IMG/VR virus record: IMGVR_UViG_3300031992_002320
Source of the DNA: an uncultured virus (IMG/VR IMGVR_UViG_3300031992_002320)
Lineage: Duplodnaviria > Heunggongvirae > Uroviricota > Caudoviricetes
Strand: one strand, 5' to 3'
DNA: 34,722 bases
Positions 1 through 20,133 of this stretch are shown here, in pieces (the stretch's first letter is position 1; every line of letters starts with the position of its first letter). The position numbers and the translations under genes are program-made. The notes beneath the pieces were generated by a model that was not told the DNA's origin, searched no databases, and was given only the letters and a program-made list of their open reading frames with translations.

Positions 1-2
1 GA

Positions 3-929
3 GGGCTTACGAGTATGCAGAAGGGTAGCTTTGGGGTACGTGGGCTCTATACATGTATTGACTCATCGTTCTATGGGGAATGGATGTTGTTGGCCAAGGG
101 ATGTTATCTGCCGGTTCGCCCCGGTGCGGTTCGTTTTGTAGATACATCGGGTGCTGTTGTGGATTGTCAGTTGTCGTTGTGTGAAGGTTTGGCAGTGGGA
201 GATGATCTCCGTGGGCATCTGTCATCCCTTTTGGATAGTTATACAGGTGTTGGTCAGATTCATGTTCCGATGGTTGATCATGTTCCCGATGTTCTGTATT
301 TGGATACTCTCCGAGGCAAGTTGGATGCTGGTAAGCTATTACTTGGTCAATATTTGGAGGGTGGTAGCTTGATGTATTATAGAGATGGGGCATTGGGAGG
401 AGTATTGTGCCTTGTCGGTGCGCCGGTGGCATTTGTGGCCGCCCTTGTTCAGCAGATGTCTGGTATGAGGGATGCGCATATGTATCTTGCAACTGATGTT
501 TTGTCCGAGTGTGGTGCTTTGTTGGGTGGTCTTGGTGACCGTCTGCACAGTGAGGATCCTCTATCGCCGGGTAAGGCTGCGGTGGTGGATGATTTCATCT
601 CGGATGATTTGTCGGGTGCCCGTGTATGTTTGTTGGATAAGTCGGTGCTTGCATCGTTTGAGGATTTGAAGGGGCTTGAGAAGGCTGTCAAGGCTGGTGG
701 GATGCTCATCTTGTTGTCGAATGACACGAGGCCGAGTGGTGGAGTTTCCACATTTTTGCGTGCCGTGGGTGATAGTGTATTTTATATATCATTTGCGGAT
801 CCTTATCGTCAGTTGTTTATTCAGGGATTCACGCCTCGCAAGGTTGGATTTGTTGCTGGTGATTGTTTCGCTTGGTATGACGGTTGCTTTGACTTGTTGA
901 GATGTGTATCGTTGGACGTAGCAGGATAG
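3..929 (+). CDS. C-terminal part of a probable FtsK/EssC(EccC)-like ATPase with a degenerate P-loop domain; frame is open to the window start, so likely 5'-truncated
   Basis: No stop in frame upstream of ATG 15. KAGGMLILLSNDTRPSGGVSTFLRA resembles the FtsK-family segment GIHLILATQRPSGVVS. VLCLVGAP and RVCLLD sit where eroded Walker A/B strands would be. It directly precedes WXG100-like genes. Confidence 0.5.
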   Translation, partial: GLTSMQKGSFGVRGLYTCIDSSFYGEWMLLAKGCYLPVRPGAVRFVDTSGAVVDCQLSLCEGLAVGDDLRGHLSSLLDSYTGVGQIHVPMVDHVPDVLYLDTLRGKLDAGKLLLGQYLEGGSLMYYRDGALGGVLCLVGAPVAFVAALVQQMSGMRDAHMYLATDVLSECGALLGGLGDRLHSEDPLSPGKAAVVDDFISDDLSGARVCLLDKSVLASFEDLKGLEKAVKAGGMLILLSNDTRPSGGVSTFLRAVGDSVFYISFADPYRQLFIQGFTPRKVGFVAGDCFAWYDGCFDLLRCVSLDVAG

Positions 930-941
930 GAGGTTTGTTAT

Positions 942-1235
942 ATGCTGAATACGAATGAGATTGCAGCGGCCTTCACCGCCATCTACGATTTTGTGCAGTA
1001 TCAGATGTCCATTGTCAATACATTATCTGCGGATTGTAAGTTTCTCGATGGTAATGCTTGGCTTGGAGATGCTGCGAATGTAGGGTGTGGTGTTATGGAG
1101 AGTTATGTAACCACTGGTTTACAGCTCGCCAATGATGTTGAGGAGTTTTATAATGAGTTGCAGGATGATTATGCGGCTTATCAGGAGAAGGATGATGAGA
1201 TTGCGCAGGCGTTTTCGAGTGAGGAGGGTGGCTGA
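942..1235 (+). CDS. WXG100/Esx-like protein (97 aa)
   Basis: ~100 aa and helical, with central W-L-G (NAWLGDAA) and C-terminal YQEKD (YxxxD-type T7SS export motif); GGAGG RBS. Confidence 0.75.
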   Translation: MLNTNEIAAAFTAIYDFVQYQMSIVNTLSADCKFLDGNAWLGDAANVGCGVMESYVTTGLQLANDVEEFYNELQDDYAAYQEKDDEIAQAFSSEEGG

Positions 1236-1237
1236 TT

Positions 1238-1681
1238 ATGACGAGTGGTGAGTGGTATGCTAAAGCCCGTGCCTTGCGTGCGGAGGCTGCCGAGCATGAT
1301 GCCTTGGCCGCCAAGTATGGGGCTGCTGCGGATGCTTTTGGTGTTGCGGCGAATGCGCTGGATGATTGTCATTGGAATGTGGAGCCGATGACTCATAGTG
1401 AGTATATTGAGGTGGCGTTGCCGGAGCAGCATCGTGAGGCTTTTACGGATGCGGTTGGTTCTCTGTTGACCTCAATTGATACTTCGCAGACGAATTTAAA
1501 TTCTGCCAAGACGCAGGCGCTTGCTTCTAAAAAGTCACATGAGGATACGGCGGCTGATTTGCGTAGGCAGGCGGATGATGCTGACCGTGAGGGTGATGCA
1601 GAGGCAGAGCGTGAGCGTGAGCGTGAACGCGAGCGTGAGAGGGAGCGTGAGGCTGCGGCATCTTCTGGTTCAGGTAGTTGA
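1238..1681 (+). CDS. Small Ala-rich coiled-coil protein, candidate T7SS effector partner, with an (RE)n tail
   Basis: 147-aa all-helical composition; lies between a WXG100-like gene and an effector-like gene; GAGCGT-type hexamer repeats at ~1607-1651 encode ERERER. Confidence 0.55.
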   Translation: MTSGEWYAKARALRAEAAEHDALAAKYGAAADAFGVAANALDDCHWNVEPMTHSEYIEVALPEQHREAFTDAVGSLLTSIDTSQTNLNSAKTQALASKKSHEDTAADLRRQADDADREGDAEAEREREREREREREREAAASSGSGS

Positions 1682-1699
1682 TAAGGAGGACAGGGTTCA

Positions 1700-3142
1700 A
1701 TGGCAAAGTGGCGTTGTTTTGAATATAGTTTCGATTCCCTATCTTCGGATAACGATATCTTTCGTAACACGGTTGTAGGGGATTTGTCCACGGCTGTTTC
1801 ACAGCAGTTTGATAATCCGAGTGAGTTTGCTGATGTCTGGAATGAGTTCTTGAACACTTATGGTAAGTGTGATAGGTTCTCATCCAACTTTCAATTTTAT
1901 TGTTCGGAGGTAGCTACTACACAGCAGGAGGACGAGACCGTGATCATGGCCAAGTTCACGGATCTTATGAATAACATGGAGGCCATTGTTGGGTTTACCA
2001 TTAGTGGGTATCAGCAGGACATGGATGCCTACACCAACAAGATGGTTTTCAAGGAGATGTGGCTTTATGAGGATGGTCGTGAGATTGCTTATATTGCCGC
2101 TGCCTTGGTTGTTGCCGTTGTGGTAGTCGTTGTGGCTTGGCCTGCTGCTGTTACTGCGCTTGGTGCGTGTGGTGCGGGTTGTGCGGCGAGTGCGGTTTTC
2201 AGTGCCATTTCGGCGGTCAGTACAGCATTGGCGGCGACGTGTACTTTGGGTTATACAGGTATCAAGTATGTTGCGATGTTGGAGCGTTCCGAGGTATGTT
2301 CAGATCCGTTGAAGGATGCTCTTACCCCGGATGAGAGAAATGCGGAGCTTATGATTTCCGTGGAGCTTGGTGAGGGTTGGGCGAGAACCTATCAGGGGTT
2401 GTCCATTGCGTCTCTTGGTCTCTCTGTGCTCGCGGCTGGTACTGGTTTGGCCGCATTGGGTTGCAAGATTACGGAGCTCGGTTTTGAGTCTGGGTTGCAT
2501 TTCTCTACGAGGGGTGAGGCTTTCCGTAATGGTTTATCCAATTTGTGGAAGTCTGGTATTAAGTGGGAGTGGAAGATTCCAACAGATCCTCTTAAGAGAT
2601 TGGATCTTGTGGTTAATGTAGCGCAGTCCGGCAATACGATGATTGCCCGTGGACGTGAGATTTACACTGATTTCAAGGCGGGTGGCATCAGTGCGGTGAG
2701 TGCTTCTGATGTGTGTCAGTTCCTTACTGCTGGGATTACTCTTGGTACCAAGTTCGGTGGTTTCTCCAATGCCAATCTTTGTGCTAATGCGCGTTATAAT
2801 CCAAATTCTTCACGTGGGCGTTATGAGCTTGGTGAGATTGTGGTTGGTGGTTCTTATGAGGATCAGGTTGCCGCGTTTACCAATACCGAGGTCTTTAAGG
2901 AGCTTAATATTACCAAGATTATCAACCCGGTTAAGTTGACCAATTTTGGCATTAACTCGGTTGGTGATGGTCTGTCGGGAGATCTCTCCTTTGGTGGTAT
3001 TCTTAAGGGACTTAGTGGTACGAGTGGTACGGGAAGTGGTGGTACATACAAGTCTTTTGTTGCTTTAACTGATGGTCTTAGTAATTATCAGGTTGACTTG
3101 TCGGTACCGTCATATCTTAACTATGAGTTGGGATACAACTAA
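1700..3142 (+). CDS. Putative T7SS effector / membrane-active toxin-like protein (480 aa)
   Basis: AGGAGG RBS; helical N-terminus; long Ala/Val/Gly hydrophobic segments (IAYIAAALVVAVVVVVVAWPAAV..., GLSIASLGLSVLAAGTGLAALG); Gly/Ser-rich C-terminus; position matches LXG-type cassettes. Confidence 0.5.
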   Translation: MAKWRCFEYSFDSLSSDNDIFRNTVVGDLSTAVSQQFDNPSEFADVWNEFLNTYGKCDRFSSNFQFYCSEVATTQQEDETVIMAKFTDLMNNMEAIVGFTISGYQQDMDAYTNKMVFKEMWLYEDGREIAYIAAALVVAVVVVVVAWPAAVTALGACGAGCAASAVFSAISAVSTALAATCTLGYTGIKYVAMLERSEVCSDPLKDALTPDERNAELMISVELGEGWARTYQGLSIASLGLSVLAAGTGLAALGCKITELGFESGLHFSTRGEAFRNGLSNLWKSGIKWEWKIPTDPLKRLDLVVNVAQSGNTMIARGREIYTDFKAGGISAVSASDVCQFLTAGITLGTKFGGFSNANLCANARYNPNSSRGRYELGEIVVGGSYEDQVAAFTNTEVFKELNITKIINPVKLTNFGINSVGDGLSGDLSFGGILKGLSGTSGTGSGGTYKSFVALTDGLSNYQVDLSVPSYLNYELGYN

Positions 3143-3160
3143 TATTGGTGGAGGTGTTTT

Positions 3161-4672
3161 ATGGCAGATTTGGAGGGACTTGATATTAAGAGTCTTGTGG
3201 GGGTTGACCTTACGGGGGCTGATTGTAGTGATGAGTTAGAGGAGTGTTTTGGTTCGCTTAAGATGCTGTTCCAATCTCATACCTCTGCCGTGGAGGTTCT
3301 GGATGCCTTTGATAAGGCTTATGGTGAGGAGTTCCGTGCGGGGCTTTCAGCTTCTGATCGTTGTTTGTTTGATTATGTTCGTATTAGGCTCGCTGTAGCG
3401 GCTGGTAAGGTTGTTGAGCCGGCTGTGATTGAGGGTGTGGCTGAAGGGTTATCCAACTCCGATGCCTTGCTCTCCTACGGTGAGTTTTTGGTTGAGCACG
3501 GAGCCTTTGCGAAGGCGGATGCCGTGTTTGAGCGTGCCTATAATGTGGGTTGTTGCATGTGGCGTTTATTCCTTGGTAGGGGTATGCTCTGCAGAGCCAG
3601 AGGTGACTTAGGTTCTGCAATGAGGTATTTCGATAAATCTCGCCGTTCCGGTGGTGGTTATCGTGCCTTGGTTGAGGGTGCCACAATTCTTCTCATGATG
3701 CAGAACTTTGAGCTTTGTGGTAAGTGGCTCGATGAGATTGAGAAGATTAACAAGGGTTCTCTCATCGGTATTGATCTCCGTGTGAATTGGTTCATTGCGA
3801 CCAATGATATCAACGGTGGTCGTGCCTATATCGAGGAGCTCAAGCGCACTTTTGGGGAGACTAATTTGGAGCTCAGTTCGTATGAGATTGTTCTCGATAT
3901 GATGGATCACAATGTTGATGGGCTCATCGAGTTGTGGAAGTCCGAGACATTCCCCAAGGCGGTTAGACCGATGCTCGGTTGTTGCCTTGCTGGCCTGTTG
4001 TTAGACAAGGCAGAGAGTGGTGATGGTTCGGTTATCTATATCCCGGAGGGTGTTGATGCTAATGAGCTTAAGACTGCGGTTCAGGTTCTTGTTGAGGATG
4101 GTGAGGCCGTGTCAGCTCCGATGTTTTCTATGATACTTACGGAGAACTATCTCAACTATCTTGGTTGGGGTGCCGAGGAGGTTTATCATTTCATCAAGTT
4201 GGTTGGTTCTTCCGCGGGAATGGGTTATCAGCAGGTCTATTGGCCTACGGTTGTGGGTGTTGCTGCTGGGTATATTGTTTCTGTGGAGGATGTCAACAGT
4301 GATCTTGCGAGGGAGTTTAAGCAGCTCATTCGTGAGGGGCATAGATATTTCCGTGAGGGATATATGCAGGATGGTGGTGTAGTTTCTTGCATAGGTTATG
4401 TTGAGTGTGAGCTTGCTCTTGGGTATGGTTTGGAGCGTCTTGATAGGGTGCTTCTTACTCTTAAGAGTTCTTTGCCACAGCTTGATAGTTTCTGTGATCT
4501 TGTTCATTGTGTTGCGGATGGTGATGATAGTCGTATTGCCGAGCTTGAGAGTGCTGTTAAGACCTCTTTTGAGGGTATCGGTTCTTCTTATCAGGTTGAT
4601 GGTTTGGCGGCTGTTCTTAAGTCATTCAAGGCGTGTGGTGACAAGCTTAAGTCAGGAGGTGATGTATCATGA
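3161..4672 (+). CDS. TPR-repeat protein (503 aa), candidate immunity protein or chaperone
   Basis: TPR-like helices (ALLSYGEFLVEHGAFAKADAVFERA; LFLGRGMLCRARGDLGSAMRYFDKS); immediately downstream of the effector-like gene. Confidence 0.6.
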   Translation: MADLEGLDIKSLVGVDLTGADCSDELEECFGSLKMLFQSHTSAVEVLDAFDKAYGEEFRAGLSASDRCLFDYVRIRLAVAAGKVVEPAVIEGVAEGLSNSDALLSYGEFLVEHGAFAKADAVFERAYNVGCCMWRLFLGRGMLCRARGDLGSAMRYFDKSRRSGGGYRALVEGATILLMMQNFELCGKWLDEIEKINKGSLIGIDLRVNWFIATNDINGGRAYIEELKRTFGETNLELSSYEIVLDMMDHNVDGLIELWKSETFPKAVRPMLGCCLAGLLLDKAESGDGSVIYIPEGVDANELKTAVQVLVEDGEAVSAPMFSMILTENYLNYLGWGAEEVYHFIKLVGSSAGMGYQQVYWPTVVGVAAGYIVSVEDVNSDLAREFKQLIREGHRYFREGYMQDGGVVSCIGYVECELALGYGLERLDRVLLTLKSSLPQLDSFCDLVHCVADGDDSRIAELESAVKTSFEGIGSSYQVDGLAAVLKSFKACGDKLKSGGDVS

Positions 4673-4989
4673 TGGGTGGTGATGGTATGACCAATGGAGA
4701 GTTCTTTGCATATCCGGCGGCGATGACCACTATTGCGAATGATTTGGATACTGTGGCGGCGGAGTATGAGTCTCGATATAATGCGATGCTCGCTGCATTT
4801 GAATCTCTTGTTAATGAGAGCTGGACGACTCCCGGAGGTCAGGCGGTGCTTGCGAAGTATCAATCTACTTGGCAGCAGGAGTTTACGAAGCTTCATCTTG
4901 GGTTGGCGGAGATTGCCAAGACATTGCGTGAGAGTGCGGATCAGTATGATCAGGGTATTCTTACGGTCAACTTACCCGATTTGAGCTAA
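4669..4989 (+). CDS. WXG100/Esx-like protein (106 aa), variant W-T-T turn
   Basis: Helix-turn-helix pattern, central ESWTTPGGQA, C-terminal LRESADQYDQ; ATGA overlap with the TPR gene. Confidence 0.7.
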   Translation: MMGGDGMTNGEFFAYPAAMTTIANDLDTVAAEYESRYNAMLAAFESLVNESWTTPGGQAVLAKYQSTWQQEFTKLHLGLAEIAKTLRESADQYDQGILTVNLPDLS

Positions 4990-5093
4990 TTTTTGGGATT
5001 CCACGCTTATTGCGTATTATCCATGTGATGTTTTGTAGTTGTAGTTTGGGGTTTACCCCATAGTAAATCTTAATTTATAGGAGGACTTTAGTT

Positions 5094-5390
5094 ATGGCAG
5101 GTGGAGTAATGGTAACAACCTTTGAGGATCTCGAGCAGATTGGTAATGACCTCATTACCTATTCACAGGATCTCGATGAGCTCAAGGGTAAGATTCAGAC
5201 AGCGAGAGACACTATGGAGTCTACTTGGGAATCGCAGGGTGCTACTGCGGAGCTCACCAATGTAGATAATTTCCTTACTTCCGTTGATAACTGTGTTGAG
5301 GCTCTTAACGCTCTTGGTGATATCACCGTTAAGGCCGCTCAGGGTTACAAGGAAGTGGATGATGCCATCGCTTCTGCAAATCAGGGCTAA
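5094..5390 (+). CDS. EsxA-like WXG100 protein (98 aa)
   Basis: N-terminus VTTFEDLEQIG, central TWESQGA, C-terminal AAQGYKEVDDAIA closely follow the EsxA/YukE pattern; AGGAGG RBS. Confidence 0.8.
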   Translation: MAGGVMVTTFEDLEQIGNDLITYSQDLDELKGKIQTARDTMESTWESQGATAELTNVDNFLTSVDNCVEALNALGDITVKAAQGYKEVDDAIASANQG

Positions 5391-5403
5391 TGTGATCGGG
5401 CGT

Positions 5404-5430
5404 GGTGCATCTTACGGGGTGCACCACCTT
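5404..5430 (+). terminator. Hairpin after the esxA-like gene
   Basis: GGTGCATCT-TACG-GGGTGCACC stem-loop. Confidence 0.6.
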
Positions 5431-5452
5431 ATCTTGATTGGAGGTGGAAGAT

Positions 5453-5833
5453 ATGGGTGTTTCAATGGCGCCTTTGAATAAGTTAACAGTGTACAATCCG
5501 GGTATTTCTGCCTCTTGTCTGGGATCTCGTTTGGGTATCAGCTTATGCAAGGCGGAGGATATCGAATCTGGTGCGGCAAGAGGTTATTTCTTGGTTTTGA
5601 ATGCGGTCGTTAATCGTTCCGCTGTGACATTACTGAGATTTGGCTGGGTGCCCACTTATGGAGAGCTTTGTGATTATATGCGCAAGCTTGGTTACGGTAG
5701 TCTCCCGGCGTTCAAGGACTTTGCTACGGTGGGGGATCCGCAGGACATGCCCGAGGATGGTGTAAGGCTTCGTTATTATCTCTTGGATAACTATGGGGTT
5801 CTTATGTCGGATGGTGTACATGTTAACAAGTGA
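5453..5833 (+). CDS. Hypothetical protein
   Basis: GGAGG RBS before ATG 5453; codon style matches neighbours. Confidence 0.6.
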   Translation: MGVSMAPLNKLTVYNPGISASCLGSRLGISLCKAEDIESGAARGYFLVLNAVVNRSAVTLLRFGWVPTYGELCDYMRKLGYGSLPAFKDFATVGDPQDMPEDGVRLRYYLLDNYGVLMSDGVHVNK

Positions 5834-5874
5834 TACTCTGTTGAGTATAGTTGTTCATACTTAATTCCCTATAT

Positions 5875-5904
5875 AGAGGCTGTGGGTTGTGACTCATAGC
5901 CTCT
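5875..5904 (+). terminator. Hairpin upstream of tmRNA
   Basis: AGAGGCTGTGGGT-TGTG-ACTCATAGCCTCT, 13-bp stem with G-U pairs. Confidence 0.55.
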
Positions 5905-5933
5905 TATATTGAGGGTGTTGATTTTTATGCTAT

Positions 5934-6328
5934 GGGCTCGTTTTTGGTTTCGACAGGGATGAGAAAGTGCATACTGCAGCAGTCGGAGAACTTTACTCCC
6001 ACCCTAAAGTAGACGCTAACAACGACTACGCAATGGTTGCCTGATCCTTTGGGGTTTGAGCATCCATTCTGATCGCAAGATCAGTTCCGTGTAAGATGGT
6101 TACGGATATGCCTCAACTTACCGGTGACTTAAGTAATCATCCGTGAAGTCCCAAGCCTATCCGCTGGGTGCTGTCGATTGGGTGCAACAGCAACGGTGTG
6201 AGCACTGATTAAATGTTTGTCTGTTCAATGGTGAGCAGTGTTACAAAAATTCGCCTTAAACAGGACTAAGCTGTAGATGTGTGTATGAGTATCATTTTTG
6301 GACACGGGTTCGAATCCCGTCGAGTCCA
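5934..6328 (+). ncRNA. ssrA: tmRNA; tag peptide (A)ANNDYAMVA at 6015-6044
   Basis: 5' GGGCTCG..GGTTTCGAC and 3' GACACGGGTTCGAATCCCGTCGAGTCC-A; acceptor stem with G3:U alanine identity pair; resume context TAGAC-GCT AAC AAC GAC TAC GCA ATG GTT GCC TGA; CCA not encoded. Confidence 0.93.
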
Positions 6329-6352
6329 CTTTTTGACTGTTGGAGGTTTTTT

Positions 6353-10270: not shown

Positions 10271-10341
10271 GCCTACGTAGTATAGTGGTAGTACATCTGC
10301 TTCCCAAGCAGGTAGCGCGGGTTCGATCCTCGTCGTGGGCT
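10271..10341 (+). tRNA. tRNA-Gly(CCC)
   Basis: Acceptor GCCTACG/CGTGGGC, anticodon loop TTCCCAA, T-loop TTCGATC, U discriminator. Confidence 0.9.
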
Positions 10342-10345
10342 TTAT

Positions 10346-10468
10346 CAATGGGGTGGTTGCAACAAGTATCTGTGGTGCATCACAGTGCTTGCCAAGTGGT
10401 AGCCACATTACAAGCATAGACCGATGCACTGGTCGAAGCCGTAGAGAGTTCGAATCTCTCCCCATTGT
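10346..10468 (+). ncRNA. tRNA-like RNA with expanded D region and no canonical anticodon arm
   Basis: Perfect CAATGGG/CCCATTG acceptor and GAGAG-TTCGAAT-CTCTC T-arm; helix GTGGTTGC/GTAGCCAC encloses a further hairpin. Confidence 0.5.
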
Positions 10469-10719
10469 CGCCGACTTGTCAATGTCGTAAAACTTGGTGA
10501 GTGATACTTGCTCGAAGGCCTTGGATATGTGGTTGGGGTGGAAGTTAAAGGTGATACTCCCCATTTAGAAAGACTATTAAGTTTCGCCAACAGCCAAGGA
10601 CAAAAAGGAGACCCCACATCGGCTACTCGCACAATGTAGTATCGGAGATGGGAAGGGAAAGCGGGATGGTAGAAACCAAGTGCGACCTGTGAGTACCACG
10701 CCACGTTGGGGATCGTGGC
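10467..10719 (+). ncRNA. Candidate ~250-nt structured ncRNA
   Basis: Long-range GTCGC+ACTTGGT / ACCAAGTGCGAC pairing, CCTTGG/CCAAGG, crossing TACTCGCA/TGTGAGTA helix; purine-rich; no credible ORF. Confidence 0.45.
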
Positions 10720-10723
10720 ATCT

Positions 10724-10795
10724 GCCTTCGTAGCACAATGGTAGTGCGGATGCATCGTAAGCATCAGGTTATAGGTTCGAATCCTATCGGGGGCT
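10724..10795 (+). tRNA. tRNA-Thr(CGT)
   Basis: Acceptor GCCTTCG/CGGGGGC; GATGC-ATCGTAA-GCATC; ATAGG-TTCGAAT-CCTAT. Confidence 0.9.
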
Positions 10796-10974
10796 TTGTG
10801 TCGGGTGTAGGGCCTATACAGTTTTGCAAGACTGGGTGTGGCCAAGGTAGGTCGTCGGTTTAATCAACCGATTAAAGCGGATGAAGCTGATTACTTATTC
10901 GTATCCTATCGGTGGGTTCAATTCCCCAAGTGTTAGCCATACACGATTCCGGGTGGGTGCATGCGGCACATTGT

Positions 10975-11097
10975 AGGGATGTAGCTCAGATGGGAGAGCT
11001 TTACCGTATACTGTTCTTAAGCCATTCATAATCGCGAGTGTGGGTGGTGGTTTGGAACTGGACGAAGTGGTCATGGGTTCGAGTCCTATCATCCCTT
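10975..11097 (+). ncRNA. tRNA-like RNA with a ~65-nt extended anticodon arm
   Basis: Perfect AGGGATG/CATCCCT acceptor, canonical D-arm GCTC/GAGC and T-arm; anticodon arm replaced by a long imperfect hairpin. Confidence 0.7.
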
Positions 11098-11190
11098 GAT
11101 GTTGGGGTAGCTACCCAACTATGTGAGCGTGGCGGAGTCCTCACAGAAAATGACAATGCTACGGTGTTGATGCATCGTAGAATCGCACAT

Positions 11191-11263
11191 GGGGGTATAG
11201 CTCAGTTGGGAGAGCGCCTGCCTTGCAAGCAGGATGTCAGGGGTTCAAGTCCCCTTACTTCCA
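11191..11263 (+). tRNA. tRNA-Ala(TGC)
   Basis: Acceptor GGGGGTA/TACTTCC with G3:U70; CCTGC-CTTGCAA-GCAGG. Confidence 0.95.
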
Positions 11264-11266
11264 CTT

Positions 11267-11368
11267 AGGCATGGTTGGTGGGCGCCCGGTTAGCTCAATC
11301 GGTAGAGCGCTCTGGAAACGGAGAGATGTGGTTCGAGTCCAATACTGGGAGGAAATCAACCTAAACCT
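11267..11368 (+). ncRNA. tRNA mimic with GAAA tetraloop in place of the anticodon, copy 1
   Basis: D-arm GCTC/GAGC; CTCTG-GAAA-CGGAG; T-loop TTCGAGT; acceptor CCCGGT/ACTGGG extended by GGTTGGT/ATCAACC and AGG/CCT. Confidence 0.7.
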
Positions 11369-11373
11369 AATAT

Positions 11374-11447
11374 GGCTCGGTAGTTCAGATGGTGAGAACG
11401 CCTGCCTGTCACGCAGGAGGTCATGGGTTCAAGTCCCATTCGAGTCG
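11374..11447 (+). tRNA. tRNA-Asp(GTC)
   Basis: Acceptor GGCTCGG/TCGAGTC; CCTGC-CTGTCAC-GCAGG; G discriminator. Confidence 0.93.
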
Positions 11448-11449
11448 TT

Positions 11450-11537
11450 GGCCTAATAGTTTAATGGAAGATATTTTAAGCGCGTAGAACGGCATTAAGT
11501 CATAAAGCTGGTAGAGGTTCGATTCCTCTTTAGGTCG
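11450..11537 (+). pseudogene. tRNA-like element with intact acceptor and T-arm but no recognisable anticodon arm
   Basis: GGCCTAA/TTAGGTC; AGAGG-TTCGATT-CCTCT. Confidence 0.55.
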
Positions 11538-11661
11538 CTTAAAAAACACGATGACAAGATAATTTGCTGGAGTTAACTGCAAGGGTAGGATATTGGGTAA
11601 TCAGCAAAACCTTAGTCCGAGAGTAGCAGCGGGGGTTTTTGAGGCCGTGTTTCCCCCATAT

Positions 11662-11733
11662 GGGGCTGTGGTGCTGTTGGGAGCACAGGTGTTTTGCAAG
11701 CATAAAGTTGGGGTTCAAGTCCCATCGGTCACC
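11662..11733 (+). pseudogene. Degenerate tRNA-Ala(TGC)-like element
   Basis: GGGGCTG 5' end, GTGC/GCAC D-stem, TTTGCAA loop; mismatches in acceptor and T stems. Confidence 0.5.
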
Positions 11734-11736
11734 TTT

Positions 11737-11842
11737 GGAGCACGGGTGATGGCAGTCCGGCAAAGTGAAGCGGAGTTCGAGTCTCTAAACCAAAACCGTT
11801 CGAATCGGTTGGTGCATGGTGCAAAACTTTGCATAACGCTCC
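11737..11842 (+). ncRNA. Candidate ncRNA with two tandem T-loop hairpins
   Basis: GGAGC/GCTCC and GCAAAGT/ACTTTGC enclose GGAG-TTCGAGT-CTCT and AACCG-TTCGAAT-CGGTT. Confidence 0.5.
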
Positions 11843-11911
11843 TATAGTACAACTGGTGAGCGTGGGTGCTTTGCAGGCACGAGGTTATGGGTTCAAGTCC
11901 CATCAGTTCCA
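11843..11911 (+). pseudogene. tRNA-Ala(TGC)-like 3' portion lacking its own 5' acceptor strand
   Basis: GTGC-TTTGCAG-GCAC; ATGGG-TTCAAGT-CCCAT; CAGTTCC-A. Confidence 0.5.
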
Positions 11912-11914
11912 TTT

Positions 11915-12014
11915 GGGCATGGTTAGTGAGTATCCCGGCTGGTCCTGTGGTGGGACGCTTGGGAAACCAAGAGACCGGTTCGACTCCGAGCTGGGAGAAA
12001 GCTAACCTAAACCC
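11915..12014 (+). ncRNA. tRNA mimic with GAAA tetraloop in place of the anticodon, copy 2
   Basis: D-arm GTCC/GGAC; CTTGG-GAAA-CCAAG; T-loop TTCGACT; acceptor TCCCGGC/GCTGGGA extended by GGTTAGT/GCTAACC and GGG/CCC. Confidence 0.7.
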
Positions 12015-12018
12015 TTAT

Positions 12019-12090
12019 ACCGATATAACTCAATTGGTAGAGTGCTATCCTACAAGATAGAAGTTGGGAGTTCGAGTCTCTCTGTTGGTA
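12019..12090 (+). tRNA. tRNA-Val(TAC)-like with a 6-nt anticodon loop
   Basis: Acceptor ACCGATA/TGTTGGT; ACTC/GAGT D-stem; CTATC-CTACAA-GATAG; GGGAG-TTCGAGT-CTCTC. Confidence 0.65.
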
Positions 12091-12094
12091 CGAA

Positions 12095-12162
12095 CCCGTG
12101 AAGAGATCGTTTAGGCGTTTAACGGATCAATTTACGGGGCGCGGAGCGCAAAATAACGCCTA
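12095..12162 (+). ncRNA. Candidate pseudoknotted RNA
   Basis: CCCGTGAA/TTTACGGG hairpin whose loop TAGGCGTT pairs with downstream AACGCCTA; GCGC-GGA-GCGC hairpin in between. Confidence 0.5.
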
Positions 12163-12207
12163 TGGGATTGAGAGTATCTTATTCAGACAAGAATTAAAAA
12201 TCTGGAT

Positions 12208-12329
12208 ACCATGATGGTGAAATTGGAAGCCGCTGGGAGCCGGGGTGCTCCCGATTCTTAAGAGCTGGAGAGCCCGTCGAGGGTTGGACGGCACACTGAG
12301 GAATACAGGTTCGAGTCCTGTTCATGGTC
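12208..12329 (+). ncRNA. tRNA-like RNA (Leu-type D-loop) with a ~50-nt branched variable arm
   Basis: Perfect ACCATGA/TCATGGT and ACAGG-TTCGAGT-CCTGT; GGGAGC-CGGGGT-GCTCCC at the anticodon position; ATTCTT/AGGAAT encloses CCGTC/GACGG. Confidence 0.65.
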
Positions 12330-12466
12330 GGCGGTGTGGTGGCGGCACAGTGGAGTTTAACTCACGGCCATAGAGTGCGGGAGGGCTTAGACGCATAAGG
12401 CATCATTGGGGGCCGCGGATCGAGTGGTGCTTGTCCTCATTGGTTATGTTGAGGAAGGAGGCTTGT

Positions 12467-12832
12467 ATGCACGGGAATATAGTGGATCTCAGAGGTCAGC
12501 GGTTTGGTAATCTCACGGTGTTGGAGTTGACCAATCTTAAGACGGAACGCAAGAGGGGTACGGTCTGGCTTTGTAAGTGTGATTGTGGCAACCTCTGTTA
12601 TAAGACTGGTGCGGATCTGAGGGATACGAGGCGTAAGACTTGTTCTTGTGGTTGTATGAACCGTGGGCATCGTCAGTTTCCGAATCGGTTTGTTCAGAAG
12701 CCGGAGTTTACTGGTCATGAGAGGGTTCGTGCAGAGTTTGCTGATGCTCTTATGAAATATTATGCGGGTTCTCCGTATGAGAGTGTAATGAGGCAGGGTA
12801 TATCTGCTGTGTTGGCATCGTATGCTAAGTAG
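12467..12832 (+). CDS. Homing-endonuclease-associated Cys-rich domain protein (no nuclease motif seen)
   Basis: DLRGQRFGNLTV...WLCKCDCGN...SCGC motif, typical of the N-termini of phage HNH/AP2 proteins; AGGAGG RBS. Confidence 0.7.
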   Translation: MHGNIVDLRGQRFGNLTVLELTNLKTERKRGTVWLCKCDCGNLCYKTGADLRDTRRKTCSCGCMNRGHRQFPNRFVQKPEFTGHERVRAEFADALMKYYAGSPYESVMRQGISAVLASYAK

Positions 12833-12844
12833 TTTTTGTTCTGT

Positions 12845-12917
12845 CGGGATGTAGCGCAGATGGTAGCGTGCTTCATTAGGGATGAAGAGGTCGTGGGTTC
12901 AAATCCCGCCATTCCGA
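12845..12917 (+). tRNA. tRNA-Pro(AGG)
   Basis: Acceptor CGGGATG/CATTCCG; CTTCA-TTAGGGA-TGAAG; GTGGG-TTCAAAT-CCCGC; A discriminator. Confidence 0.92.
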
Positions 12918-12920
12918 CTT

Positions 12921-13050
12921 GTGTCGAAGGAGAGTGACTACTCCGTAGATACTGGATAAACCAAGGTGTAATGGTTGGCACACCCGCCCCGACGGCAGAT
13001 TAGTCACTGTGCGAGGGCGAGAGGGTAAGGTTCGAATCCTTTGTGGTTTG
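12921..13050 (+). ncRNA. tRNA-like RNA with extended anticodon arm complementary to an upstream hairpin loop
   Basis: TAAACCA/TGGTTTG; GTGT/GCAC D-stem; AAGG-TTCGAAT-CCTT; loop AGTGACTA (12933-40) is complementary to TAGTCACT (13001-08). Confidence 0.6.
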
Positions 13051-13101
13051 CTCAGGCACGGTTGTGTGAGTAGCCTCAGTAGTTTAGAGGTAGAACAATC
13101 C

Positions 13102-13172
13102 GCCCACATCGTATATTGGTATTACGGCTGTTTTGTAAGCAGTTTAGCTTGGTTCGAATCCAAGTGTGGGCT
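13102..13172 (+). tRNA. tRNA-Thr(TGT)
   Basis: Acceptor GCCCACA/TGTGGGC; GCTGT-TTTGTAA-GCAGT; CTTGG-TTCGAAT-CCAAG. Confidence 0.88.
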
Positions 13173-13174
13173 AT

Positions 13175-13250
13175 TGCAGGTGGGTGGAACGGAATGACCA
13201 TACAAGGCTCATAACCTTTGTGATAGTGGGTTCGACTCCCACGCCTGCTA
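13175..13250 (+). tRNA. tRNA-Met(CAT), possibly initiator-like (1:72 mismatch)
   Basis: GCAGGT/GCCTGC; AAGG-CTCATAA-CCTT; GTGGG-TTCGACT-CCCAC. Confidence 0.78.
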
Positions 13251-13254
13251 TTTT

Positions 13255-13329
13255 GCCCTCGTAGCTCAATGGATAGAGCACGTGGCTACGGACCACGGTT
13301 TTGTGCATGTTCGATTCGTGTCGGGGGCG
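13255..13329 (+). tRNA. tRNA-Arg(ACG)
   Basis: Acceptor GCCCTCG/CGGGGGC; CGTGG-CTACGGA-CCACG. Confidence 0.92.
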
Positions 13330-13350
13330 TTTGGTGTCATGTATTATATT

Positions 13351-13585
13351 GCAATATTACTAAGTTAAGACTCATGGCTGTCGAATTTGGGTTGAAAGAA
13401 ATGATGGAGTGGCATGCGTAGATTAAACGTGAGGCAGGAAGCACACTATGCACCCGTACTTCAAGGAACCAATCAAAACGATGAGAATTTGAAGTGAATG
13501 CCTTGACTAAAAACATACGGCTCATTGTGATGTCACAGGAATAAAGCAGGGAATATTGTGATAAATCTTAACTTAATGATATTGT
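13351..13585 (+). ncRNA. Candidate ~235-nt ncRNA closed by a 20-bp terminal stem
   Basis: GCAATATTACTAAGTTAAGA pairs with TCTTAACTTAATGATATTGT (2 G-U, 1 mismatch); A-rich interior. Confidence 0.45.
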
Positions 13586-13609
13586 TTGTGGTGGATGTTT
13601 TCTTTTTTG

Positions 13610-13683
13610 TGGGATATGGCGCAGTTTGGTAGCGTGCTACACTGGGGGTGTAGAGGTCGTGGGTTCAAGTCCCATTATTCCAA
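13610..13683 (+). tRNA. tRNA-Pro(GGG)
   Basis: Acceptor TGGGATA/TATTCCA; CTACA-CTGGGGG-TGTAG. Confidence 0.9.
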
Positions 13684-13686
13684 TAT

Positions 13687-13788
13687 GTCGGTGATGAAGT
13701 TCGCAAAATGGAGTCATCGGCTGAGTGTCGAATACAAAAGTGTGAACAAAGTCGACACGGTTGCGGTTAGCTTCACACGCGCCGCAAC
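13687..13788 (+). ncRNA. Candidate three-hairpin RNA with kissing loops
   Basis: GTCGGTGAT/GTCATCGGC, GTGTCGA/TCGACAC, GTTGCGGT/GCCGCAAC; loops GTGTGAA and TTCACAC are complementary. Confidence 0.55.
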
Positions 13789-13792
13789 TTTA

Positions 13793-13865
13793 CGGGGTGT
13801 GGCTCAGGTGGTAGAGCGCGTGCTTCGGGAGCACGAGGTCGTGGGTTCGAGTCCCGTCACTCCGA
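13793..13865 (+). tRNA. tRNA-Pro(CGG)
   Basis: Acceptor CGGGGTG/CACTCCG; CGTGC-TTCGGGA-GCACG. Confidence 0.93.
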
Positions 13866-13898
13866 TTGGTGTTGTTTGTGTTAGGTTTGGAGGTGCAA

Positions 13899-14063
13899 AT
13901 GGAGCCTTTAATCATTCTCTTGGTGATTCAGATTTGGGTTATACTCTTATACAGGCCTAAGGAGGAGTCGATGTATGAGAATTGGCGTTCCGATTATGGC
14001 TGGAGGTCATCATCCAAGTGTGGTAAGCACGGGAGTCGGATGAGGCATCATAGGTATCATTAG
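13899..14063 (+). CDS. Small membrane-anchored basic peptide (54 aa; internal start at 13971 possible)
   Basis: GGAGGT RBS before ATG 13899; second GGAGG before in-frame ATG 13971. Confidence 0.4.
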   Translation: MEPLIILLVIQIWVILLYRPKEESMYENWRSDYGWRSSSKCGKHGSRMRHHRYH

Positions 14064-14147
14064 TTTTGATTTGGAGCCCTCTGGAGTCTGCGGACTGGCA
14101 GTGAAGTAACCTCTGTTTTCGGACATGTTAAGAAAGGCATTGATTGT

Positions 14148-14222
14148 GGGGATGCTCAGACGTGGGCGTGGCAAAAGCCGGGGAGGCACCTTTGGCGAGG
14201 TGGTTCGAATCCGCCGATCCCC
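14148..14222 (+). ncRNA. Degenerate tRNA-like element
   Basis: GGGGAT/ATCCCC and GGTGG-TTCGAAT-CCGCC; short internal hairpins; no 7-nt anticodon loop. Confidence 0.4.
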
Positions 14223-14253
14223 CTTTTCTATTTTTGGTGTAAAGGAGAGTTAT

Positions 14254-15357
14254 ATGGCTCTTACAAATAATAATCTTGAGTTGATCAAGGCAATAGCGAA
14301 AAACGATATACACGGAGCGAGATTGGCGGCTTTGGCATCTCTCGCGGAAGATACGTCAAAGAAAAATGCCGACATGGTGAAGTATTATCGTAAGCTTCTT
14401 GTTGGTAATGCGAGTATTCTTATGTCTAATCTGCCGAGCGATATGCAGACATTCCTTGTTGGAAGTTCTCCCGGTGGATTCAAGGCGGATCGCTATTATG
14501 TCAGAGAGAGTGAATCTGCGATTGTTGATGACATTGTGAAAATGAAGTGTGTTGCTGATGAGATGTCGCTTCGTGGTATTCCGTATAAGAATACCACGCT
14601 TTTATACGGAGGATCTGGAACGGGTAAAACAGAGTTGGGTAAGTATATAGCCTACAGGCTCAACTTGCCGTTCTTTTATATATCGTTTTCGTCTATGATC
14701 GATTCGTATATGGGGGGCACTGCAAAGAATATTCATAAGGTGTTTGAGTTTTGCAATGCCATTCCGTGTGTGCTGATGCTCGATGAGGTTGATTGTGTGG
14801 CCACAAAGCGAAGCTCTGGTGGTGGTAAGGGAGCGGATGGTGAGTTGGAGAGGACAACGATCTCTATTATGCAGGAACTCGATAGGTTGCCTAATCATGT
14901 GGTGTTGATTGCGGCCACGAACCGTCTTGATATCGTGGATGAGGCTCTTATGAGGAGGCTCTCGATAAAGCATGAAGTTAAGGATATGACCACGGTAGAG
15001 CTTGATGCTATGATACGGCAGTATATCAAGGCGACTGATACAGAAAAGTACGTGGATGAGAATACCATCGCTGAGCTTACTACGACATATTCGAATCCGG
15101 GGCAGGTGATGCCGGAACTTATCAAGGTTATAGGTAAGGCCATCTTCGAGGAGAAGAAAGATGCAATAATGTCTGATGATGATATGGGTGAGACTACTGG
15201 TGTGTGGGAAGTGACGTATACTTGGAAATCCAATGTGGCTGCCGAGACAGAGGAAGATGCAATATCAATAGCAAGGCATGATCGGAGTAGTTACATGACA
15301 AAGGGTTTTACGGAAGAGTATTCGGCTAAAAAAGCAGACTTCTTGTATCCGGGTTGA
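14254..15357 (+). CDS. AAA+ ATPase (classical AAA clade)
   Basis: Walker A GGSGTGKT, Walker B LMLDEVD, SRH IAATNRLDIVDEALMRR; AAGGAG RBS before ATG 14254. Confidence 0.9.
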   Translation: MALTNNNLELIKAIAKNDIHGARLAALASLAEDTSKKNADMVKYYRKLLVGNASILMSNLPSDMQTFLVGSSPGGFKADRYYVRESESAIVDDIVKMKCVADEMSLRGIPYKNTTLLYGGSGTGKTELGKYIAYRLNLPFFYISFSSMIDSYMGGTAKNIHKVFEFCNAIPCVLMLDEVDCVATKRSSGGGKGADGELERTTISIMQELDRLPNHVVLIAATNRLDIVDEALMRRLSIKHEVKDMTTVELDAMIRQYIKATDTEKYVDENTIAELTTTYSNPGQVMPELIKVIGKAIFEEKKDAIMSDDDMGETTGVWEVTYTWKSNVAAETEEDAISIARHDRSSYMTKGFTEEYSAKKADFLYPG

Positions 15358-15377
15358 GTTCCATCCATTGTGTTGTT

Positions 15378-15449
15378 ATCCGCTTGGTGTAACTGGCAGC
15401 ACGGCGGTCTCCAAAACCGCAGGTAGAGGTTCGAGTCCTTTAGTGGGTG
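15378..15449 (+). tRNA. tRNA-Trp(CCA)
   Basis: Acceptor ATCCGCT/AGTGGGT; GCGGT-CTCCAAA-ACCGC. Confidence 0.92.
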
Positions 15450-15453
15450 TTAG

Positions 15454-15542
15454 GGCGGTGTAAGCCTAATGGTAAGGCAGCGGTTTGCTAAACCGTGAGT
15501 AGGCGTTTGGTCGCTGTGGTGGTTCAAGTCCACTCGCCGTCG
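15454..15542 (+). tRNA. tRNA-Ser(GCT)
   Basis: Acceptor GGCGGTG/CGCCGTC; GCGGT-TTGCTAA-ACCGT; long variable arm; G discriminator. Confidence 0.9.
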
Positions 15543-15672
15543 TTTTTATTGGGAGTCCAAGGAGGTGAATGATTCTGGTTCGGCTTGGTTTGGGCTCTTT
15601 TATATTTTTGGATGTGTTAACTTATCGGTGTCCTTTGGTATCGGTACCTTTCAGTTCAGTGAGGTGATTTTA

Positions 15673-16734
15673 GTGTTTAGTAGAAACATTGACTTGAAGA
15701 GGGTTATGTTGTATGGGGGCTTGAGTGATTCAGAATATACGGAGGTTCTGCCCGATATTGAGGAGCAGAATAGGCAGATTCTCTTGATGGCATCTTTGCT
15801 CGCGGTAGTTCTTATCGGGTGTATGTTTGTGATCTCGCTCTTTGTGGGTGAGTTTACTGGGGCTACGGTTGTGTATGGTTTTGGCTGCTTGGTATCGGTG
15901 TTGGTGTGGCTTCTGACGTGTTTTGTGGTGCCACGGCGTTTGGGGTTAACACATTTACTCACGGCGGTATGTGTTGAGGTATATCTCGTTTATGGAATTT
16001 TTGTGAGTGGTGTTGTGAATACGGATTTCCCGGCGGTCACCTTCGTGGTCATGGTGGTGTTCATGTCCTTGTTGTTTATTAAGCGGCCGGTGTTTCTAAT
16101 TCTTCAGGTTTTCTTGAGTTGTGCTTTCTACTCTGTTTTGATTTGTTACACGAAGTCTGATTCCACGATTCGTTTGGATCTGGTTAATGTTTTGATATTT
16201 TGGTTGTTGGCATGTGTATGGGGCAGTGTTAGTACCTGTCAGCGTATGCGTGCTGCGTATGTGCATAAAAAGTTATTTGAGTTTAATGAGGTGGATCAGT
16301 TAACTCGGTTGAAGAATCGGAACTGTTATGAGTTGAATCTCGGTGGTTATGCATCTATGTATCACAAGCGGATTTGTTGTGTTTATGTTGATGTGAATGG
16401 TTTGCATCAGCTTAATAATTCCAAGGGGCATGAGGCTGGTGATGAGATGCTTAAGTTCACGGCGGATAGGGTTATTCGTTATTTTGGTTTTGAGCATGCC
16501 TATCGTGTTGGTGGGGATGAGTATATAGTGTTTGTCTTGGACACTGCAACGGAGACCGTGTCTGGTTATGTGGCTGATATGATTGCGGAGGTTGAGGAGG
16601 CTGGTTATTCCTTGTCTGTTGGAATTAGTCATACAGATGGTGTGTGCAAGATCAAGGATTTGGTTCGTGAGGCGGAATCTAAGATGTTTCGGGCCAAGGA
16701 TGCGTATTACAAGAGGGTTGGTACTACGCGATAG
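15673..16734 (+). CDS. Membrane-bound GGDEF-domain diguanylate cyclase-like protein (GGDEY variant)
   Basis: About 6 TM helices, then DQLTRLKNR, DVNGLHQLNNSKGHEAGD, YRVGGDEY; GAGGTG RBS before GTG 15673. Confidence 0.9.
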   Translation: MFSRNIDLKRVMLYGGLSDSEYTEVLPDIEEQNRQILLMASLLAVVLIGCMFVISLFVGEFTGATVVYGFGCLVSVLVWLLTCFVVPRRLGLTHLLTAVCVEVYLVYGIFVSGVVNTDFPAVTFVVMVVFMSLLFIKRPVFLILQVFLSCAFYSVLICYTKSDSTIRLDLVNVLIFWLLACVWGSVSTCQRMRAAYVHKKLFEFNEVDQLTRLKNRNCYELNLGGYASMYHKRICCVYVDVNGLHQLNNSKGHEAGDEMLKFTADRVIRYFGFEHAYRVGGDEYIVFVLDTATETVSGYVADMIAEVEEAGYSLSVGISHTDGVCKIKDLVREAESKMFRAKDAYYKRVGTTR

Positions 16735-16767
16735 TTTGGTATATTTTATGTCTTTAGGAGTTTTGTG

Positions 16768-18015: not shown

Positions 18016-18033
18016 TTGTGGTGAGGTATATTT

Positions 18034-19083: not shown

Positions 19084-19096
19084 TGAGGTTGAGGAG

Positions 19097-20122: not shown

Positions 20123-20133
20123 GAGGTTGATGT

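Follow-up and report, generated by a model that had tools for sequence, protein, structure and literature searches.

Type VII secretion systems (T7SSs) have long been known as chromosomal machines, a few of which are plasmid borne. To our knowledge, phages carry only T7SS cargo, in the PEST cassettes of Mycobacterium prophages. Here we describe a T7SS-like gene run in an uncultured virus record, IMG/VR IMGVR_UViG_3300031992_002320. The stretch analyzed, called the window below, is 34,722 nucleotides (nt; 34.7 kb) long and belongs to a larger element, of which 48 kb, including 10 kb upstream, could be read. Positions 3..5390 of the window carry the end of a gene for an EssC-type motor ATPase, followed by six complete open reading frames (ORFs). 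On balance we take them to be the downstream two-thirds of an operon of about 10 kb with eight T7SS-related genes, on a phage-like replicon of about 175 to 182 kb that occurs in ruminant gut samples.

The closest described systems fall into three groups. The T7SSe, T7SSf and T7SSj subtypes of Clostridia, as set out in sections of Garrett et al. (2024; PMC11217815), have TsxJ, a DUF6382 plus FHA protein, TsfV, a TadZ-like ATPase, and TsxB, which is YukD; in the same sections small WXG100-related genes adjoin candidate substrates. ESX loci on mycobacterial plasmids were described by Dumas (2016) and Newton-Foot (2016), as cited there. PEST cassettes, according to passages of PMC10654092, are phage-encoded toxins secreted by ESX systems, sets of three to four genes with a defined immunity gene, found in temperate phages of about 40 to 80 kb whose hosts have a T7SSa. 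Our full-text literature searches, in which some papers were screened by title or abstract only, found no phage described as carrying an EssC/EccC motor, and the main text of Al-Shayeb et al. (2020) contains none of the terms "secretion," "ESX" and "WXG."

The EssC-type motor and the genes around it

A scan of metagenome contigs gave two loci with this gene run, L001 on a 175,375-bp contig and L002 on a 178,235-bp contig from another assembly. Over the 10,926 bases that they share, L001 and the window differ at a single position, and the EssC proteins of L001 and L002 are 98% identical. The window itself opens inside the motor gene. The ORF at 3..929 (plus strand, open at its 5' end) encodes 308 residues, the end of domain D2 plus D3, that are 100% identical to the C terminus of P0001, a 1489-amino-acid (aa) protein whose gene begins at L001 10001, 3.5 kb ahead of the window. 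A sequence-only reading of the window had described an FtsK-like C terminus at 3..929 and pointed upstream for the rest of essC; the rest of the gene does lie there, and the full-length product matches FtsK_SpoIIIE, the NCBIfam EssC model TIGR03928 and YukB.

Taken alone, ORF 3-929 had no family match and gave nothing informative by phmmer against PDB sequences. The full-length P0001 matched Pfam FtsK_SpoIIIE with 94.1 bits over residues 666 to 857, which are D1, and its best solved-structure match was Bacillus subtilis YukB (9qks; E = 2.6e-69), followed by the EccC of T. curvata. Profile A1, made from P0001 and 13 relatives, could be aligned, right up to its C terminus, with two crystal structures of EssC D2-D3, 4lya and 5fv0. 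There are thus three tandem P-loop domains of the FtsK/SpoIIIE type in P0001, D1 found by Pfam and D2 and D3 through A1. Positions 84 to 258 of A1 matched FHA structures, including that of Staphylococcus aureus EssC (1wv3); Pfam FHA had no match in P0001. A hydrophobic segment spans residues 264 to 289, and a second transmembrane (TM) candidate, picked by eye, comes directly after it. The Walker A and B motifs of D1 are canonical, and the D3 P-loop is degenerate, as it is in most relatives. In D2 the Walker A lysine is replaced by asparagine (GPAGCGNT, residues 1040 to 1047, about L001 13118 to 13141), a position at which all 13 aligned relatives have GK[TS].

The nearest near-full-length cellular EssCs are about 29 to 30% identical to P0001, which had no close relative outside its own cluster and likewise none in 185,579 species genomes. 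In a FastTree phylogeny of 75 EssC/EccC proteins the element EssC was sister to the whole clostridial clade (support, 0.957), on a terminal branch of 2.44 substitutions per site, the longest in the tree, compared with a median of 0.44. This basal placement may be an artifact of long-branch attraction. Judging from such divergence, the T7SS lineage of the element is old or fast evolving and was not recently captured.

The six ORFs behind essC are tightly packed on the plus strand, separated from 3-929 to 5094 by 12, 2, 18, 18, −4 and 104 nt. Three encode WXG100-type proteins, for which the Pfam family (PF06013) has a cut-off of 27.3 bits. ORF4669 (4669..4989; 106 aa, WTT motif), which is of a type that we call WXGb and whose start overlaps the preceding gene by 4 nt, scored 38.1 bits, and ORF5094 (5094..5390; 98 aa, WES motif, with YKEVD as its YxxxD sequence) scored 31.2 bits, so that both passed; ORF5094 also had a match to Geobacillus EsxA (3zbh; E = 0.036). 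ORF942 (942..1235; 97 aa) occupies the first WXG position after EssC, with a WLG motif and a YxxxD sequence, YQEKD, near its C terminus. It fell below the Pfam cut-off and matched TIGR03930 with an E value of 0.027, and against a local WXG hidden Markov model (HMM) it ranked third of 211 small ORFs (E = 1.6e-6). The other three genes encode a 147-aa acidic protein with an (ER)n tail (ORF1238, 1238..1681), which is probably helical, a 480-aa membrane protein (ORF1700, 1700..3142) and a 503-aa cytoplasmic protein of the TPR or alpha-solenoid type (ORF3161, 3161..4672). The tight run, its five short motifs, the WXG100 character of three products, the TM-rich 480-aa protein and the TPR protein had all been claimed from the sequence alone, and each was borne out: the motifs stand in the translations, ORF942 was recognized by the WXG100 profile of cellular T7SS loci, and the hydrophobic segments and the TPR-type solenoid are described below.

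Upstream of essC, the stop codon of an 85-aa ORF lies 17 nt 5' of the start. In cellular loci, 43 of 44 aligned small ORFs at this spot match Pfam YukD. The 85-aa ORF aligned with the profile of these 44 neighbors over its C-terminal 27 columns, including E-x-P and N-G positions (E = 0.0017; probability, 15%), and, of all 211 small ORFs in the 48 kb, it had the best score with a YukD HMM (E = 0.098). A search by phmmer against PDB sequences returned nothing informative. We infer that it is probably a YukD/EsaB-like ubiquitin-fold protein, a weak assignment. The sequence-only reading had looked to the upstream DNA for essB, esaA and yukD, and this YukD-like candidate was the only one of the three to appear.

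All eight genes, that is, the six complete ORFs, EssC and the 85-aa ORF, have a GGAGG-type Shine-Dalgarno sequence directly 5' of the start codon. A terminator-like hairpin of 11 pairs (5402..5427, plus strand; L001 18943 to 18968) begins 12 nt past the ORF5094 stop and is probably the 3' end of the operon. In the upstream 10 kb, a second hairpin, of 14 pairs and with a T-run, lies between recJ and ydjM. The scanned stretch held 14 terminator-like sites, compared with 13.8 in shuffled sequences. Since this is no excess, only the positions of the hairpins count as evidence for operon ends. The ydjM gene, which encodes a YdjM-type membrane-bound metal hydrolase (PF04307, 41.9 bits; L001 8992 to 9729), sits past the strong hairpin and T-run and overlaps the start of the YukD-like ORF by 4 nt. 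The operon may begin with ydjM; the named clusters of the cellular loci include no counterpart of this gene.

Purifying selection acts on the block, as seen in two variants that are both intact. All eight T7SS-type genes are intact in both L001 and L002, and the ratios of non-synonymous to synonymous change (pN/pS) between the two were 0.00 for the YukD-like ORF, 0.05 for EssC, 0.07 for ORF942, 0.05 for ORF1238, 0.17 for ORF1700, 0.05 for ORF3161, 0.03 for ORF4669 and 0.06 for ORF5094. Synonymous and non-synonymous changes numbered 179 and 27 in EssC and 10 and 0 in the YukD-like ORF. The neighboring replication and repair genes had a similar range of pN/pS (0.05 to 0.17). ORF1700 evolves fastest in the block, with 91% identity between the variants. 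The genes were also found in RNA libraries: in metatranscriptome runs X3 and X4, contigs identical to the window span portions of the stretch from ORF942 to ORF5094, and in runs X21 and X23, from two further studies, variant contigs cover ORF1700, ORF4669 and ORF5094. Window positions 1-800 were uncovered in these four runs, which is not taken as evidence. Contig cover of ORF5094 came from 4 runs in 3 studies, and the runs with the element are labeled sheep and bovine gut. DNA runs of other studies, labeled bovine or goat gut, contained 0.33 to 0.41 of the sampled words and are not used to infer a habitat.

Colinearity with clostridial T7SS loci

We scanned species genomes with a profile and collected the 80 loci with the closest EssCs, which are about 26 to 35% identical to that of the element (L007 to L086). 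Their 1075 ORFs were clustered, and the clusters were named with Pfam and NCBIfam; 74 of the 80 loci hold an ORF of the EssC cluster. Nearly all of the 80 are from Clostridia (Lachnospiraceae, Oscillospiraceae, Pseudobutyrivibrio, Clostridium and others). One gene order recurs among them: a DUF6382 plus FHA protein (TsxJ-like), a ParA/MinD-like ATPase, YukD, EssC, a WXG100 protein, a protein of about 135 aa, a protein of about 477 aa with a TM hairpin (cluster c6), a protein of about 200 aa with two TM segments (2-TM), a TPR protein of about 435 aa, WXGb and WXG. The TsxJ-like gene was present in 43 and the ParA-like gene in 47 of the 74 EssC loci. The c6 gene was found in 16 of them and the TPR gene in 15, both together in 13, and the whole order in 11.

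The eight-gene block of the element, from the 85-aa ORF through EssC to the last of the six ORFs, is colinear with this conserved block of gut Clostridia. Five of its ORFs each matched, by hhalign, the cluster that stands at their own position. ORF942 matched the WXG cluster c2 (91.7%; E = 8e-7), its WxG and Y..D positions falling in the corresponding columns, and ORF5094 matched the same cluster at its second position (96.7%; E = 4.1e-10). ORF4669 matched the WXGb cluster c10 (93.5%; E = 2.3e-7), which in cellular loci also comes after the TPR gene. ORF1700 matched c6 (83.5%; E = 8.4e-6), and ORF3161 matched the TPR cluster c7 (46%; E = 2.1e-4). The remaining downstream gene, ORF1238, is assigned by position: in cellular loci a gene for 104 to 165 aa separates WXG from the membrane protein.

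ORF1700 has a helical N-terminal domain (about residues 1 to 120), a W-x-Y-x-x-G-R motif, a TM hairpin within a hydrophobic stretch at residues 125 to 183, a further hydrophobic segment at 234 to 255, and a Gly/Ser-rich variable C-terminal part. Its W121 is the sole invariant column of A3, an alignment of 18 sequences. No Pfam, NCBIfam or PHROG family matched it, neither an LXG domain (PF04740) nor a toxin domain was found, and its only match among 1.84 billion representatives was a fragment of itself. From the profile match and its position, it is a probable counterpart of the cellular c6 family. The N-terminal domain of c6 is WXG100-like, not LXG (92.9%; E = 3.7e-7 over 107 columns), which suggests that c6, and by extension ORF1700, would be targeted to a T7SS rather than form part of a channel.

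For ORF3161, the score against Pfam TPR_14 was 22.5, with a cut-off of 23.5, and no TM segment was found. The ESM Atlas model (pLDDT, a measure of model confidence, 0.77) fell in with TPR clusters at 0.96 and had a TM-score of 0.59 to a TPR protein. In the hhalign control none of 40 shuffles did better than 0.075, compared with the real E value of 2.1e-4. The cellular TPR counterparts scored against SycD/LcrH secretion chaperones with E values of 2e-17 to 3e-19, below the cut-off.

The 2-TM protein that follows c6 (about 190 to 260 aa) was present in 12 of the 16 cellular c6 loci, and the element has none. The clostridial block of c6, 2-TM, TPR and WXG100 pair (for example, L007 12902 to 16572) is scattered over the EssC tree in 16 of 74 loci; it is apparently undescribed and receives no mention in the Results of PMC11217815. 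We did not obtain a donor for the module from the tree, in which the element EssC is basal to all clostridial EssCs, outside the c6-bearing groups, and c6 is itself scattered. A ranking by BLAST score, suggestive only, has c6 loci as 7 of the top 15, compared with 16 of 74 overall.

Possible role of the module and nature of the element

We favor the view that the operon is an incomplete and much-diverged version of a clostridial T7SSe/f/j-type locus, whose module most likely plugs into the T7SS of a Clostridia host. The element EssC hexamer, helped by the YukD-like protein, would export the WXG100 proteins that the element encodes, together with ORF1700. ORF3161, the TPR protein, may keep the hydrophobic ORF1700 in the cytoplasm, by analogy with the class II chaperones, also of the TPR type, that serve translocators in type III secretion, and the small WXG-type proteins may act as co-secretion partners. 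The module would in this way redirect the host T7SS to the element's cargo. C-terminal variants of EssC go with different substrate sets in Staphylococcus.

The sequence-only reading had proposed that the element encodes its own divergent T7SS, and part of this stands: an EssC is encoded, together with a probable YukD-like protein. The rest of the machine did not appear in the 10 kb upstream or in the 34.7-kb window. Pfam and NCBIfam found no EssB/YukC, EsaA/YueB or EssA in 8 plus 23 window ORFs and 12 upstream ORFs, and within 48 kb there was no Pfam match for TsxJ, a TsfV-like ATPase, a PPM phosphatase, a kinase or an Ig-rich TsxI. Nor did any of 24 ORFs, a set that leaves out window ORFs 23565, 32291, 33168 and 34215, match clusters c3, c4, c5, c12, c14 or c16 by hhalign. 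Since T7SS partners are common in the cellular relatives but were not found nearby, use of a host scaffold is favored over a self-sufficient system.

A system of the latter kind, in which the YukD-like protein, EssC and WXG100 proteins export cargo without host parts, would agree with the lack of any partner gene within 48 kb, and a mobile element would gain from independence of its host. Modules of a solo WXG gene and a three-domain FtsK-like ATPase in other phyla are described, in a section of Zhang et al. (2012; PMC3482391), as apparently mobile T7SSs. No minimal module is known to work, however, 43 and 47 of the 74 loci pair essC with a TsxJ-like and a ParA-like gene, respectively, and the remaining 127 kb of the element may hold partners, all of which makes self-sufficiency doubtful. 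We also think it unlikely, if slightly less so, that the genes form an effector/immunity cassette in which ORF1700 is a membrane-damaging toxin, ORF3161 its immunity protein, and ORF942 and ORF1238 Lap-like targeting partners. The WXG100-like targeting domain of c6, its TM hairpin and its C terminus of variable length (393 to 575 aa) are reminiscent of polymorphic toxins, as is the rate of change of ORF1700, the highest in the block, and small WXG100-related genes stand beside candidate substrates in sections of Garrett et al. (2024; PMC11217815). Weak leads in the same direction are a match of a c6 representative to alpha-xenorhabdolysin A (E = 0.0088) and the PT-TG found in 27% of the members of one ESM Atlas row. 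Pfam, NCBIfam and PHROGs nevertheless gave no toxin domain, and the proposed immunity protein is soluble, with TPR and c6 genes kept in fixed order across genera (13 loci); the SycD/LcrH-type scores of its cellular counterparts fit a chaperone better. The 2-TM protein after c6 in 12 of 16 loci is the better immunity candidate, and the element has none. The cassette of helical partners, effector 1700 and immunity 3161 put forward from the sequence alone is thus not upheld: the six ORFs keep the gene order of the clostridial T7SS block, and its 2-TM gene looks the more immunity-like. Should that gene confer immunity, the element would export a membrane-active protein without protecting its own host. 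Bystander killing, exclusion of rival phages and a change of the host envelope are candidate payoffs.

We next consider the replicon. Three assemblies gave contigs of 175,375, 178,235 and 181,887 bp, the last being the longest with P0001. The window has a GC content of about 0.47 and a GC skew of +0.21 to +0.41 throughout, and every ORF treated as a gene is on the plus strand. A tmRNA gene (5934-6331; Rfam, 110.3 bits; tag peptide ANNDYAMVA) lies directly past the T7SS block and is covered by RNA-library contigs, and an array of about 14 tRNA genes (10271-15542) contains a gene for an HNH endonuclease (12431-12832). Two of the tRNAs found by ARAGORN have unusual anticodons of two bases, and Rfam gave a further, weak tRNA at 11284-11351. 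Encoded in the 10 kb ahead of essC are a fragment of a Toprim primase, SbcC/SbcD-like proteins, RecJ (458.5 bits) and the YdjM-type hydrolase, and other context genes encode an exonuclease and a nucleoside deoxyribosyltransferase. PHROGs matched 15 of 31 proteins, and there are many orphan genes. The claim of a T7SS-like locus on a phage-like or extrachromosomal element agrees with the EssC and WXG100 genes and with the visible 48 kb, which do not look chromosome-like; the claimed tmRNA and tRNA array were likewise recovered, with 14 tRNA matches in Rfam and with ARAGORN.

Huge phages carry tmRNAs and tRNAs (Al-Shayeb et al., 2020), and from such indirect features we consider the element likely to be a phage. 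It is improbable, at about the level of the cassette above, that it is instead a megaplasmid or a secondary replicon in a rumen bacterium of the Clostridia, with a plasmid-borne T7SS module. The essC genes on Bacillota plasmids in PLSDB fit that alternative, as do the absence of any virion gene from the 48 kb and the similar translation-gene suites of some large putative plasmids (Al-Shayeb et al., 2020). Relaxase, type IV secretion, partition and plasmid replication genes were equally absent from the 48 kb, however, and there are PHROG matches; the tmRNA, the tRNA array with its inner HNH gene, the single-strand coding and the orphans make up the huge-phage pattern of the same study, and the EssC branch of 2.44, compared with the median of 0.44, fits fast viral evolution. 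An ordinary chromosomal T7SSb locus on a bacterial contig is very improbable. The EssC architecture is standard, and some "phage" records with EssC are host loci beside prophage ends, such as the S. suis record and L003. The element nevertheless lacks YukC/EssB, EsaA and EssA, its flanks are primase, SbcCD, RecJ, tmRNA, tRNA, methylase and orphan genes, and its nearest cellular EssC is only about 30% identical, with no close relative in the 185,579 species genomes.

Several results weigh against our view of a diverged clostridial-type module on a phage. P0001 is, by sequence, clearly EssC-homologous but too diverged for equivalog assignment to TIGR03928, which it matched with an E value of 4.4e-140 and 468.5 bits and a curated cut-off of 778.4 that was not reached. 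The last 290 residues of EssC (D3) gave nothing below an E value of 1.6 by BLAST against the 74 cellular EssCs, and a motor with asparagine in the D2 P-loop could be impaired. ORF1700 is only 12 to 18% identical to c6 members, and its model from the 18-sequence alignment had a pLDDT of 34.2. None of 60 block-shuffles reached its c6 score of 8.4e-6, but the best came to 5.8e-5; since shuffles that keep the TM segments score so well, much of the match reflects TM segment placement. ORF1238 had no detectable similarity to its 14 positional equivalents (hhalign, 1%; E = 0.053). The 85-aa ORF had no Pfam match (YukD, PF08817), and its AlphaFold2 model, strand-strand-helix-strand-strand, had a pLDDT of 50.7 and meaningless Foldseek matches. 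The RNA contigs fit transcription without proving it, as DNA may be present in such libraries and neither strand nor expression level can be read from contigs. No terminase, portal, capsid or tail gene was recognized in the 48 kb, blastn of window positions 1-6000 against INPHARED gave no match, an exact 52-nt pattern from the window had none in IMG/VR, and P0001, a 1420-aa ORF and an AAA ATPase had no relative in IMG/VR. Partner genes could lie in the remaining 127 kb or so of the element, and use of the host T7SS scaffold, a dependence that we purely infer, has a little less than an even chance of being right.

Other phage records with EssC were considered and rejected as true phage T7SSs. 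In INPHARED, 295 records matched P0001 by tblastn and none covered at least 80% of it; the best were unannotated fragments and a Streptococcus suis record. That record (L087; MN270261.1, 56639-77200) ends in a host-type T7SSb locus, from EsxA to EssC and downstream genes. Profile A1 found 4 loci in IMG/VR, two of which were annotated: L003 has a holin and an endolysin abutting a host WXG100-YukC-EssC locus, and L004 is an unclear 16.5-kb contig.

Farther along the window, a row at 15565-22037 encodes a multi-TM GGDEF diguanylate cyclase, two C-5 cytosine methylases (Dcm), S-adenosylmethionine synthetase (MetK) and guanylate kinase (Gmk), and looks like a self-supplied methylation block with cyclic di-GMP signaling. 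A 120-aa ORF (23182-23544) with an N-terminal TM segment weakly resembles WXG100 proteins (local HMM, E = 0.0043; hhalign, 31.6%). Directly 3' of it lies the 1420-aa orphan (23565-27827), whose only relatives are 93% and 75% identical; the two could be a second T7SS cargo pair. By tblastn against phages the 1420-aa ORF had no match, and the AAA ATPase and ORF28332 had only distant, uninformative ones; phmmer searches of the PDB sequences with the 1420-aa ORF and ORF33168 were uninformative too.

Comparison with known type VII systems

Our fullest interpretation, put forward tentatively, is that a phage of about 180 kb that infects rumen Clostridia encodes its own T7SS motor, ubiquitin-like factor and private cargo and, while infecting or carried by its host, makes it export a membrane-inserting protein and WXG100 proteins. 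If true, no type VII secretion apparatus would have been known before from a virus, and such a phage could turn its host into a weapon against neighboring bacteria or rival phages or remodel the envelope with a secretion ATPase. If the element is indeed a phage, it shows that a virus can bring along the core that sets the specificity of a secretion system, its motor and cargo, and it would serve as a natural test of which T7SS parts can replace one another.

Plasmid-borne T7SSs likewise combine a T7SS ATPase and WXG100 genes outside the chromosome. They have a fuller locus content, and none has the tmRNA, tRNA and phage-like context of the element. In PLSDB, essC is annotated on plasmids of the Bacillota Agathobacter rectalis (251,725 bp), Bacillus mycoides (334 to 435 kb) and L. 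fermentum, and the A. rectalis locus comprises EsaB/YukD, a separate FHA protein, EssC, WXG100 and Imm59. The suggestion that a T7SS would be unusual on any extrachromosomal element is to that extent weakened; on a phage, if the element is one, it would be new.

The PEST cassettes of Mycobacterium prophages resemble the locus in combining one or more WXG100 partners with a larger protein that has a WXG100-like N-terminal domain and is thought to be exported by a T7SS, as described in passages of PMC10654092. Unlike these cassettes, which have no ATPase, neither EccC nor FtsK being mentioned in that paper, the element carries a motor and a probable YukD-like gene and has no evident immunity gene. 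The T7SSb of Bacillus and Staphylococcus shares with the element an EssC whose closest structure is YukB, WXG100 substrates with YxxxD and, putatively, a ubiquitin-like partner gene directly upstream. It differs in having EssB/YukC, EsaA/YueB and EssA/YueC, which were not found in the element's 48 kb, and ORF1700 is without LXG.

The T7SSe/f/j systems differ from the element in having TsxJ, TsxV, a PPM phosphatase, a kinase and TsxI, none of which was found within its 48 kb, and the long basal branch of its EssC, the lost D2 P-loop lysine and the phage-like replicon also set it apart. The likeness to them, as they appear in sections of PMC11217815, lies in the arrangement of the genes. The element has an EssC (TsxC) with a putative FHA-type N-terminal region, a probable YukD-like gene (TsxB) directly upstream and a WXG100 gene (TsxA) directly downstream, and further WXG100-related genes stand beside its candidate substrates. 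The cellular loci nearest to the element EssC carry the TsxJ and the ParA/TadZ-like ATPase that, in those sections, define T7SSe/f/j.

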